The notes under the pieces are model-generated. The model saw nothing but the letters and a program-made list of their open reading frames with translations. It ran no database searches and was not told the origin of the DNA. The position numbers were made by a program, and so were the translations under genes. A stretch of 64,000 nt of DNA from Acidimicrobiia bacterium (GTDB lineage: Bacteria; Actinomycetota; Acidimicrobiia; IMCC26256; JAENVU01): positions 94,040 through 158,039 of the forward strand of contig JBBSAM010000005.1 of NCBI GenBank assembly GCA_038252255.1, read 5' to 3'. Below are positions 52,942 to 54,827 of this stretch, piece by piece. How positions within the stretch are numbered: position 1 is the first letter of the stretch; the number at the start of each line of letters is the position of its first letter.

Positions 52942-53165
52942 AGAGAGTCGGCGACCGGGTCGACGAGACGGAGGTGCTCCGTCTCGTCGTCGGGCCGGAG
53001 GCGTTCCACGCCGAGCTCCACGGCCGCCTGGAGGCGATCGAAGAGCCGGCTGTCCCGGAGCCGCTCGAGCCGGCGGCGGATCTGCTCGTAGCGAGCCCGC
53101 CCGGCCTTGGCGCCGAGGTAGTAGCCAATGCCGAAGCCGAGCACGAGACCGATCCGGAACTTCAT
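52938..53165 (-). CDS. Small single-pass membrane protein (75 aa)
   Basis: ATG 53165 follows AGGAAGAGAG. It has an N-terminal TM segment ([17 protein letters not shown]) followed by a charged helical tail. GC3 bias is good. A LexA box lies 46 nt upstream. Confidence 0.65.
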
Positions 53166-53210
53166 GCTCTCTTCCTACCGCATCCATCGACCGCGCGCGG
53201 GTTTCGGGTG

Positions 53211-53228
53211 AACGAACATATGTTCGTT
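53211..53228. promoter_or_regulatory. LexA SOS (Cheo) box, perfect 18-bp palindrome AACGAACATATGTTCGTT
   Basis: The core CGAAC-ATAT-GTTCG (53213-53226) matches the Gram-positive/actinobacterial LexA consensus CGAAC-N4-GTTCG. It abuts the TATGCT -10-like hexamer (53228-53233), which lies 6 nt before ATG 53240. It sits between the divergent genes. Confidence 0.8.
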
Positions 53229-53239
53229 ATGCTCCGACC

Positions 53240-53890
53240 ATGGGCTACCGCGGCAAGGTCGAGCAGCAGGAGCAGGCGCGGTTGCTACGCGCGCAGAACC
53301 GGACACTCGCCGACATCGCAGCCGAGCTGGATGTCAGCAAGTCCTCGGTATCCCTCTGGGTACGTGACGTCCCCTTCACCGCATCCAAACGCCGCTACGG
53401 TCCCCGCCGCCGCCCGCATCCACAGCAAGCAGCCAAGATTCTGGAGATCGAGAAGTGCGCCGCTGAAGGCCGAACCCGCTTCGAGGCATTGAGCGAAGAC
53501 GCGTTCTTCGCCGCTGGAGTTGCGCTCTATGCGGGCGAGGGTTCGAAGACCGATGGTTCGGTGTCGTTCGCGAACTGCGATCCCGACATGATCCGGTTCT
53601 TTGCTGCGTGGCTCCGCCGGTTCTTCGATGTCGATGAACCCCGACTACGGGTGCAGGTCTATCTGCATCAGGGGCTCGATCTCGATGCAGCACACCACTT
53701 CTGGTCTTCGGTCACGGGTGTTCCGCTCGGCCAGTTCCGCAAGGGTCATCGTGCGGTCGCGGATCCGACGATCCGGCACAACAAGCATGAGAATGGCTGC
53801 TGCTACCTGAGATACCACTGCTCGCATACCCACCGGAAGGTCATGGGTCTGGTGCGGGCGCTGCTATCGTCAGACGCCATTCCGGGGTAG
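53240..53890 (+). CDS. HTH + LAGLIDADG-like (homing-endonuclease-like) protein; stop codon inside tRNA-Asn
   Basis: It has an N-terminal HTH (RTLADIAAELDVSKSSVSLWVRDV) and a central motif AGVALYAGEGSKTDGSVSF resembling a single LAGLIDADG helix. It is visibly less GC-rich, with more A/T-ending codons than its neighbours. The functional call is tentative. Confidence 0.6.
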   Translation: MGYRGKVEQQEQARLLRAQNRTLADIAAELDVSKSSVSLWVRDVPFTASKRRYGPRRRPHPQQAAKILEIEKCAAEGRTRFEALSEDAFFAAGVALYAGEGSKTDGSVSFANCDPDMIRFFAAWLRRFFDVDEPRLRVQVYLHQGLDLDAAHHFWSSVTGVPLGQFRKGHRAVADPTIRHNKHENGCCYLRYHCSHTHRKVMGLVRALLSSDAIPG

Positions 53891-53956
53891 CTCAATCGGC
53901 GGAGCAGCGCACTGTTAATGCGACGGCTGAGGGTTCGAGTCCCTCCCCCGGAGCCA
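53881..53956 (+). tRNA. tRNA-Asn (anticodon GTT), CCA encoded
   Basis: Hand-folded: TCCGGGG/TA/GCTC-AATCGGCG-GAGC/A/GCGCA-CTGTTAA-TGCGA/CGGCT/GAGGG-TTCGAGT-CCCTC/CCCCGGA/G/CCA. Confidence 0.92.
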
Positions 53957-53957
53957 T

Positions 53958-54545
53958 CTACGCGAAGCCGAAACGGGACTGCTCGCCTCGCGGGCCGGCT
54001 CGGCCGGGCCGTTCGATCTCGTCGATGAGCCCGTAGGCGAGCGCCTCCTCGGCGTCCAGCCAGGCGCCGCGCTCGAGATCGGCTTCGACGCGCTCGAAGG
54101 GCCGCCCGGTGGCGCTCGCCAGCCGGTTGACGAAGACCTCGACCGTGCGCTGGTGCTCGCGCGCGTTGCGTTCGACGTCAGTGGCACCGCCGGCGAAGGC
54201 TACGTCGGGCAGGCCGAGCCGGAATCGCGCATGGGGTGTCGCGGATCGATGAGGCGCGACCGCGACGATGCCGACGGCGGCGTTCTCGGCGCGCACGCAG
54301 CGGGCGCGGACAGGCACGCCGAGCAGGTCGATCACGTCGATGACCATGAGCGCGGCCTGAATCGTTCCGCCCGCGCAGTCGACCTGCAACGTGATGCCCT
54401 CGTCGCCGGCCGCGTCGAGCGCCATGAGCTCCGTGGTCGCAGTAGTGGCGGACACGTCGTCGAGCTGGCCACTGAGGAGAACGACCCGCCGGTCCCACAG
54501 CTGCGCTCGCATCCACTCCACCCCACCGAACTGCTCTTGGTTCAT
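53958..54545 (-). CDS. ClpP-family paralogue lacking the Ser-His-Asp triad (ClpR-like pseudoprotease)
   Basis: It aligns along its length with the adjacent ClpP. In my hand alignment the catalytic Ser motif GMSAAA becomes ENAAVG (S->A), MIHQG becomes RLGLP (H->G), and DRDYFM becomes ERGAWL (D->G). Its ATG overlaps the XRE stop (ATGA). Confidence 0.75.
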   Translation of the reverse strand: MNQEQFGGVEWMRAQLWDRRVVLLSGQLDDVSATTATTELMALDAAGDEGITLQVDCAGGTIQAALMVIDVIDLLGVPVRARCVRAENAAVGIVAVAPHRSATPHARFRLGLPDVAFAGGATDVERNAREHQRTVEVFVNRLASATGRPFERVEADLERGAWLDAEEALAYGLIDEIERPGRAGPRGEQSRFGFA

Positions 54546-54808
54546 CGAGGCTTCCGTTGCAGGCGCCAGTCGAGCTGGTGGCCCAGTGCGGCGACATAGC
54601 GCTCCAGGGTCGAGAGGCGGACGTCCGCGTCGCCCGACTCGAGGCGCGCCACGGCGGACTGGGACGTCCCCATGCGGGCGGCCACCTCGGTCTGGGAGAG
54701 CCCGAGCGCGACGCGCTCGCCGGCCAACGTGCCGGCCAGGTCGCGGCGGCGCGCGGCCGCTTCCTTGAACCCCGGGAAGACCGGGTCATGTCTCCGCTCA
54801 CTCGTCAC
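54542..54808 (-). CDS. XRE-family HTH regulator (ClgR/PopR-like by context)
   Basis: It has the HTH_3 motif (LGLSQTEVAARMGTSQSAVARLESG). I preferred GTG 54808, which follows GAGAGGTG. TTG 54823 is an alternative. It is divergent from clpP. Confidence 0.75.
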   Translation of the reverse strand: MTSERRHDPVFPGFKEAAARRRDLAGTLAGERVALGLSQTEVAARMGTSQSAVARLESGDADVRLSTLERYVAALGHQLDWRLQRKPR

Positions 54809-54827
54809 GCGAACACCTCTCAACCTA

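Follow-up and report, generated by a model that had tools for sequence, protein, structure and literature searches.

WhiA, a transcription factor of Gram-positive bacteria derived from the LAGLIDADG family, has two degenerate domains without catalytic acids and a C-terminal helix-turn-helix (HTH), and it is encoded by a near-universal core gene. In the LAGLIDADG enzyme I-DmoI, Lys120 is functionally crucial (PMC5758106). SegB of phage T4 is a free-standing homing endonuclease of the GIY-YIG type that lies in the T4 transfer RNA (tRNA) cluster and causes preferred inheritance of its own gene together with the flanking tRNA region (PMC2330249). Here we describe a locus in a 64,000-nucleotide (nt) stretch of DNA from an Acidimicrobiia bacterium (GenBank assembly GCA_038252255.1, contig JBBSAM010000005.1, forward-strand positions 94,040 to 158,039; hereafter the window), in which an open reading frame (ORF) of 216 amino acids (aa) runs into the tRNA-Asn(GTT) gene. 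We propose, with evenly balanced confidence, that the ORF and the tRNA form a homing-endonuclease-like cassette timed by the SOS response, and that the niche of the ORF's family is the 5′ flank of one specific tRNA gene. This cassette is probably selfish, rather than a device that couples tRNA maturation to protein decay.

By analogy, SegB would be the closest functional counterpart of this family, and I-DmoI and the single-motif LAGLIDADG enzymes its closest structural candidates. Like SegB, the ORF is an endonuclease-type, free-standing gene among tRNA genes, and at this locus ORF and tRNA appear to be replaced as a block. SegB is a phage-borne GIY-YIG enzyme, however, whereas the family members combine an HTH with a LAGLIDADG-like core for which cleavage is only predicted, and they are chromosomal genes of free-living bacteria with no phage or plasmid copies found. 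The ORF is also fixed directly 5′ of one tRNA, where it overlaps the tRNA promoter, and is predicted to be controlled by LexA. With the LAGLIDADG enzymes (the second motif of I-DmoI and the single-motif homodimers of the I-CreI type), the family shares a helix rich in small residues that ends in an invariant Glu-Gly and is followed by a β strand; the Lys that follows the Glu by three residues aligns with Lys120 of I-DmoI, and single-domain and tandem-fused forms both exist. It differs from these enzymes in giving no significant profile or fold match, in a β1–β2 hairpin that is predicted to be very short, in a helix-containing insert of ~40 residues between the third and fourth main strands of the modeled core, in its N-terminal HTH, and in the position of its gene outside introns and inteins. 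WhiA also joins a LAGLIDADG-type scaffold to an HTH in Actinomycetota and serves as a model of a non-catalytic, DNA-binding outcome. By contrast, members of the family have one domain and an N-terminal HTH, retain the Glu and Lys, and are hypervariable and patchy in distribution (24 of the 151 genomes sampled from the class), and the characters that define WhiA are not found in them.

The gene order rpoD, small75 (a 75-aa gene on the minus strand) and tRNA-Asn was the same in genomes with and without the ORF, which lies between small75 and the tRNA. At this single syntenic site, nine relatives were cleanly ORF-less, two kept only the last 15–22 codons (L037 and L052), one had an internal deletion (G148), and further copies were frameshifted, some possibly through long-read errors. 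Intact, degenerating and absent copies at one site are the pattern of free-standing homing endonuclease genes. The preliminary description had called the ORF compositionally deviant, and its GC content (0.625) and GC content at third codon positions (0.742) were indeed below those of neighboring genes (0.67–0.72 and 0.82–0.92, respectively). Within the genus, protein identity was 97–99% for rpoD, 86–92% for small75 and 93–99% for ClpP2, but only 51–72% for the ORF. The synonymous divergence (dS) of the ORF was >1.1, compared to 0.07–0.6 for flanking genes, and its ratio of nonsynonymous to synonymous divergence was 0.13–0.22. The ORF is under purifying selection.

Comparison of two near-identical relatives, G151 and G160, provided one clear pair in which the ORF and tRNA are discordant with their flanks. 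Nucleotide identity between these genomes was 95–100% from rpoD through small75 and the SOS box to ~70 nt into the ORF, and then fell to 50–75% along the ORF (~68% overall). The two tRNAs were 81% identical and differed in their anticodon and T stems; identity stayed low for ~45 nt past the tRNA before it returned to 90–98%. The boundaries were sharp, and dS was 1.3 for the ORF compared to 0.07–0.37 for the flanks. As judged from this alignment, the divergent segment is a replaced block that contains both ORF and tRNA. The preliminary description had offered, as an alternative reading of the locus, the insertion of an endonuclease-like gene against the tRNA gene. This alternative is supported by the occurrence of intact, missing and decayed copies at a syntenic site and by block replacement that includes the tRNA.

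The linkage between ORF and tRNA extends across the family, which was searched for in 151 genomes of the class, in 401 genomes of the phylum Actinomycetota by profile, and in 61 Streptomyces genomes. A scan of genome contigs with the single protein gave only three loci, and the broader genome search was used instead. In the class, a co-oriented tRNA lay downstream in 26 of 26 loci and was directly adjacent in nearly all of them (the truncated L025 had a gap of ~260 nt). A close group (>44% identity) precedes tRNA-Asn(GTT), and a group of 26–38% identity precedes tRNA-Lys(CTT). The family was present in 58 of the 401 Actinomycetota genomes, with a co-oriented tRNA ≤100 nt downstream in 35 of the 39 loci examined; the linked tRNAs were Asn, Lys(CTT), Gln(TTG) in Streptomyces, Pro(TGG) and Thr(GGT). 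Streptomyces copies, ~8 of them fragmentary, were found in 49 of 61 genomes at 52–83% identity. For P0257, a low-GC relative of 30% identity, 68 of 74 metagenomic loci preceded tRNA-Arg(TCT), from which they were separated by a median of 28 nt. A scan of viral contigs gave four weak relatives, one of which had a same-strand tRNA-Leu(CAG) 136 nt downstream (within 200 nt). Copies of the ORF were also found at other tRNA-Asn loci and in relatives, and most of the tRNA-Asn-linked homologues share the overlap with the tRNA.

Some loci of the family depart from the common layout or lie in larger tRNA groups. The tRNA-Lys(CTT)-linked ORF of L017–L027 and L086–L103 lies within a conserved tRNA array, because it is flanked by a divergent tRNA-Pro(TGG)-Gly-Arg-His cluster on one side and by tRNA-Lys/tRNA-Leu on the other. 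In two genomes the orientation of tRNA-Asn is reversed with respect to the genes that normally flank it: the tRNA-Asn and 22-codon ORF remnant of L037 (in G124) are inverted relative to rpoD and small75, and in L085 (in G530) tRNA-Asn is convergent with an intact ORF.

A predicted LexA operator stands ahead of the ORF. The box fits the actinobacterial LexA consensus, tCGAAC-N4-GNNCGa (PMC9380542). The same 14-mer precedes lexA (two boxes), recA, two dinB genes, rmuC and DUF222/HNH genes, and the pattern occurs 31 times in the genome compared to ~5 expected occurrences; the box therefore agrees both with the LexA consensus of the clade and with the motif before lexA and recA in the same genome, as an operator should. 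The order SOS box, TAnnnT, 5–7 nt and ATG was also found in G151, G160 and G148, and at our locus the spacing from TATGCT to ATG suggests that the ORF mRNA is leaderless. Among 71 family loci, tRNA-Lys-linked ones included, 19 had GAAC-N4-GTTC 16–54 nt ahead of the ORF, compared to 31 of 1644 background windows. The motif was present in 0 of 11 ORF-less or remnant tRNA-Asn loci, indicating that the box belongs to the cassette.

The identical LexA box is also carried by at least five DUF222/HNH-type ('13E12-like') genes in the same genome (for example at C3:54373, C6:11186, C10:61341, C12:35904 and C21:72601); DUF222 was confirmed by Pfam for one of the five, and the others were identified by eye. 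Because at least five such genes share the box, SOS control of nuclease-like accessory genes may be a theme in this genome. In fold and niche, however, these genes are unrelated to the tRNA-linked family: they are dispersed repeats with no tRNA linkage.

The protein family is very large, unannotated and unnamed. It has 3736 homologues in 90% clusters, most with a length of exactly 216 aa, and 3692 clusters at the 50% level; nearly all 90% clusters are singletons, and the best non-self match is 80% identical. The Streptomyces gene, represented by a 293-aa homologue at L105:1303–2181, is annotated only as 'hypothetical' or 'HTH domain-containing', and our search of the open-access literature gave no report of an HTH/LAGLIDADG-like family linked to tRNA genes. 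The N-terminal HTH of the preliminary description stands: its Pfam matches were below threshold in the 216-aa protein itself, and 23 of 30 aligned members matched, with a best E of 6.7e-7. The HTH helices span residues 7–18, 23–30 and 34–40 in the model. Pfam, NCBIfam and PHROGs, searched with the whole protein, 30 relatives and 9 isolated core domains, returned HTH matches only and left the remaining 170 residues unmatched. In an alignment of sequences from 26% identity upward, the invariant core residues were Y97, E100, G101, K103, N112, W124, H143, W155, F166 and G186, giving the pattern YxxEGxK...NxDP...W...H...W...F...G; E100, G101 and K103 were also recognized by eye in the Streptomyces and P0257 sequences.

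AlphaFold 2 (AF2) modeled the whole protein with a predicted local distance difference test (pLDDT) score of 88 and the core alone with a pLDDT of 90.8 and a predicted template-modeling score of 0.84. The modeled topology is helix, short hairpin, helix, strand, helix, strand, strand, helix, with E100 as the final residue of an Ala/Gly-rich helix. Some family members are tandem proteins of 396–576 aa with two [HTH + core] units (P0200, P0238, P0254 and P0264). These fusions point to a dimeric working unit, as in the relation between single- and double-motif LAGLIDADG enzymes.

The core is likely to have a LAGLIDADG-derived fold, as judged from sequence comparisons and models. In the motif AGVALYAGEG, residues Y97, E100 and G101 are invariant. 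A search of Protein Data Bank (PDB) sequences with the single 216-aa protein gave no match, and a search with the family profile gave only weak matches to I-DmoI and MamA; the I-DmoI match was to its second LAGLIDADG motif (E ~0.1) and aligned E100 with residue 117 and K103 with residue 120. In hhalign, LYAGEG lay in register with LFDADG of LAGLIDADG_3, the comparison alignment being intein sequences gathered from genomes of the class (P 0.019, probability 2.4%, sub-significant). A Foldseek search against the viral models of BFVD gave a 'homing endonuclease' as the top match (E 0.057, probability 0.98, template-modeling (TM) score 0.38), with several intein and LAGLIDADG proteins behind it. 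These three signals are independent and sub-significant, and they agree in register. Of the LAGLIDADG assignment made in the preliminary description, what stands is this concordance; Pfam and NCBIfam gave no LAGLIDADG family among the matches listed, and the top 50 PDB structures included no LAGLIDADG fold. The Pfam family PF14528 matched other loci in the genome and not the ORF. Foldseek against the PDB placed OmpA-like and YfiB folds at the top, with poor TM scores (0.36–0.44) that we do not take as homology. A PD-(D/E)xK reading of the core, with E-G-x-K and D114 as the motif, was set aside because the order and spacing of the residues are unfit.

The central observation of the preliminary description, a 216-aa ORF whose stop codon falls within tRNA-Asn, stands: the overlap is 10 nt, tRNA positions 1–10 correspond to the codons I-P-G and TAG, and the stop (53888–53890) is U8-A9-G10 of the tRNA. 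This arrangement had been read as an organizing principle in which RNase P cleavage would remove the stop codon, leave a non-stop mRNA as a substrate for transfer-messenger RNA (tmRNA), and make tRNA maturation and production of stable protein mutually exclusive. The same description had named a promoter of the tRNA's own, combined with an mRNA that ends before the tRNA, as a finding that would argue against such coupling, and comparison among relatives points to such a promoter. An extended −10-like element, TGnTAnnnT, ends ~10 nt ahead of the mature tRNA 5′ end. Of 48 distinct tRNA-Asn loci, 39 had TAnnnT at −20 to −16 relative to the tRNA 5′ terminus, and the hexamer hardly occurred at other positions; the full TGnTAnnnT was found in 9 of 9 ORF-less tRNA-Asn loci. 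Because a scan for E. coli-type promoters and terminators gave no sites (including no terminator-like site in 53100–54100), the assignment of this promoter rests on comparative conservation. By this comparison, tRNA-Asn is predicted to be independent of ORF transcription.

The last ~8 codons of the ORF read L-L-S-S-D-A-I-P-G-stop. Because ORF-less relatives share the promoter, and because homology between a filled and an empty site of one genus (G148 and G162, respectively) resumes at ~−24 from the tRNA, these codons appear to be the native promoter, leader and 5′ end of the tRNA. Translation of the ORF is thus predicted to run through the native promoter, the leader and the first 10 nt of the tRNA to a conserved TAG. 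In AlphaFold models, ordered structure stops at ~residue 209, and the tail beyond it is modeled with low confidence (pLDDT ~70). The overlap is not due to chance, because the tail ...ALLSS.AIPG* ending in the TAG of the tRNA recurs in most tRNA-Asn-linked homologues; it is better seen as a by-product of an ORF that abuts a promoter of fixed spacing. Where the tRNA has TGG at positions 8–10 (L007, L010 and P0009), the ORF continues through the whole tRNA to ~250 aa. In other subfamilies, the stop lies 8–47 nt before the tRNA or at the same U8-A9-G10, depending on frame, and it lies 8–47 nt before the tRNA in the tRNA-Gln copies examined and in several tRNA-Lys copies. TGG in place of TAG, together with an altered D-arm (GGCGCAA), was seen in the tRNA-Asn of L007 and L010 (from G035 and G040), L055 and L056, and in the ORF-bearing L007 and L010 the ORF that crosses the entire tRNA is 252 aa long.

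These results weigh against coupling by design, which we now regard as very unlikely. Several facts do fit it: the stop is located within the tRNA, the tRNA-Asn subfamily as a whole keeps the overlap, the genome encodes tmRNA, and full-length ORF mRNA must enter the tRNA because no terminator-like site was found and the two features leave no room for one between them. The tRNA nevertheless has its own conserved, ORF-independent promoter, the overlapped codons are native tRNA flank that encodes an unstructured tail, the TAG is no more than the conserved U8-A9-G10, variants that lack it are read through the whole tRNA, and the tRNA-Gln copies examined and several tRNA-Lys copies stop short of the tRNA. 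As an organizing principle, placement of the stop in the tRNA is not supported. RNase P cutting of read-through transcripts, with non-stop mRNA as the product, is plausible as a side effect, because the cut would fall before the stop and the genome has tmRNA. We judge it unlikely, at a strength above that of designed coupling, that the protein is instead a domesticated DNA-binding protein, such as a cis-linked regulator or architectural factor at the tRNA promoter that might adjust tRNA-Asn output in the SOS response, and that is mostly inherited vertically and repeatedly lost. For such a protein, the gene adjoins the tRNA promoter in every subfamily, is under purifying selection, is common in Streptomyces, and has no plasmid or phage copies that we found; the tree leaves vertical descent unrejected, and WhiA offers a precedent for a LAGLIDADG-derived transcription factor with an HTH. 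It does not account well for an ORF dS 4–18 times that of the immediate flanks, which is unexpected for a housekeeping gene, for replacement of a block with sharp boundaries that takes in the tRNA, or for foreign composition and clean absence and decay in close relatives, and the acidic and Lys residues, typically lost when LAGLIDADG proteins are domesticated, are invariant in this family. A hypervariable gene of some other function, such as defense or another chemistry, kept diverse by balancing or frequency-dependent selection and using tRNA genes only as recombination landmarks, seems to us quite unlikely, falling between these two. The extreme allelic diversity of the family, the fast evolution of the neighboring ClpP-like and XRE genes, the preference of PDB Foldseek for non-nuclease α/β folds, and invariant His143 and Asn112, which are not canonical LAGLIDADG residues, would all suit it. 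Defense islands, however, leave unexplained a fixed, co-oriented site 10–50 nt 5′ of a subfamily-specific tRNA across distant phyla, and NCBIfam and PHROGs (PADLOC was not searched) gave nothing beyond the HTH.

For the SOS-timed, homing-endonuclease-like cassette that we propose, the protein would be a free-standing, dimeric, sequence-specific endonuclease with an HTH and a single, probably LAGLIDADG-derived core bearing the Glu/Lys pair. Its gene would stay off until the SOS response was induced, by DNA damage or by single-stranded DNA entering the cell, and LexA was inactivated; RecA-dependent repair would be induced at the same moment. The protein would recognize and cut alleles of the tRNA locus unlike its own, and repair from the ORF-bearing copy would convert the locus, copying both ORF and tRNA. 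RNase P would cut read-through transcripts upstream of the stop, probably keeping the protein low, as a side effect and not as a purpose. Cutting and conversion of this kind would explain replacement of ORF and tRNA as a block, the extreme diversity of alleles, and the intact, decayed and absent copies at one site. More tentatively, the thousands of HTH + YxxEGxK genes may be unrecognized chromosomal homing cassettes, found in Acidimicrobiia, in Streptomyces and as far afield as low-GC uncultured lineages. Each would join an endonuclease gene to the promoter and 5′ end of a specific tRNA gene and, as a natural gene drive in free-living bacteria, replace the resident tRNA allele through gene conversion, with LexA tying the timing in this lineage to DNA damage or incoming DNA; we consider this wider claim possible and somewhat doubtful.

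A number of results count against a mobile endonuclease. With the whole protein, no LAGLIDADG family of Pfam was matched at E ≤ 1–10 (among the 25/52 families listed for members); the 9 isolated core domains gave no LAGLIDADG match at E ≤ 10, and NCBIfam gave no match. No nuclease family was matched in Pfam, NCBIfam or PHROG, the isolated domain included, Foldseek against the PDB with two models (pLDDT 88 and 91) placed no LAGLIDADG protein in the top 50, and each sequence or profile link to LAGLIDADG is sub-significant (E ~0.1, P 0.019 and E 0.057). The LexA box was not found in many subfamilies and was present in 0 of the 4 Streptomyces loci examined. The ORF tree is poorly resolved, and vertical descent with losses stays compatible with it because approximately unbiased tests retain genus and family monophyly (p 0.29 and 0.11, respectively). 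Phage and plasmid collections contained no copy of the family, and neither this result nor the weak tree supports long-range transfer. Finally, the 5′ halves of the tRNA are, by eye, the same in filled and empty sites, and thus no difference in immunity is evident.

Table 1. Positions of features at the tRNA-Asn locus, in coordinates of the window.
Feature	Position	Strand	Details
LexA (SOS) box CGAACATATGTTCG	53213..53226	.	Perfect palindrome, 14 nt before the ORF ATG
−10-like hexamer TATGCT (TAnnnT), predicted ORF promoter	53228..53233	+	Followed by 6 nt to the ATG
216-aa ORF	53240..53890	+	ATG start; HTH at the N-terminus and LAGLIDADG-like core domain
Helix-turn-helix region, residues 7–45	53258..53374	+	Pfam HTH_23, HTH_38, HTH_3
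Window equivalent of the predicted replaced block	53308..54002	+	ORF from ~codon 23, tRNA and ~45 nt beyond; G151 vs G160
Core domain, residues 82–209	53483..53866	+	Alignments A1 and A2; domain-only AF2 model
Extended −10-like promoter element of tRNA-Asn (predicted) TGCTATCGT	53862..53870	+	Inside ORF codons L-L-S; comparative conservation
tRNA-Asn(GTT), CCA encoded	53881..53956	+	ARAGORN and sequence

The opposite-strand Clp-type gene of the preliminary description was also seen. It is a minus-strand, ClpP-like ORF (53958..54545; Pfam CLP_protease, E 5e-29) that ends 1 nt beyond the encoded CCA of the tRNA and, judged by eye, is without the catalytic Ser and His. Together with an XRE-type HTH gene (Pfam HTH_3), it occupies 53958–54823 (minus strand) between tRNA-Asn and clpP2. 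Within the genus, the ClpP-like proteins are 64–86% and the XRE-type proteins 78–91% identical, compared to 93–99% for ClpP2. In L002, L011, L013 and L016, tRNA-Asn and tRNA-Met are 10–75 nt apart, and for this reason the ClpP-like and XRE genes between the two tRNAs look like later insertions. The same genome has a second, very different tRNA-Asn(GTT) with no family ORF upstream, on a 7.7-kb contig (C69:7175–7246), which may be either a true second gene or assembly contamination.

If the family members are active endonucleases, they would constitute a major unannotated class of mobile elements, carried by ~1 in 7 of the Actinomycetota genomes sampled and by most of the Streptomyces ones. Homing would then have a new niche in the 5′ flank of tRNA genes, which would explain the hypervariable alleles beside tRNA genes, the SOS response would be linked to selfish gene conversion, and the proteins might offer new, compact scaffolds for recognition of long DNA targets. 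If they lack catalysis, a family of DNA-binding proteins that spans phyla, each linked in cis to a specific tRNA, would add a new layer to the biology of tRNA genes. The Streptomyces homologue that precedes tRNA-Gln(TTG) brings the question within reach of direct tests in an organism amenable to genetics.

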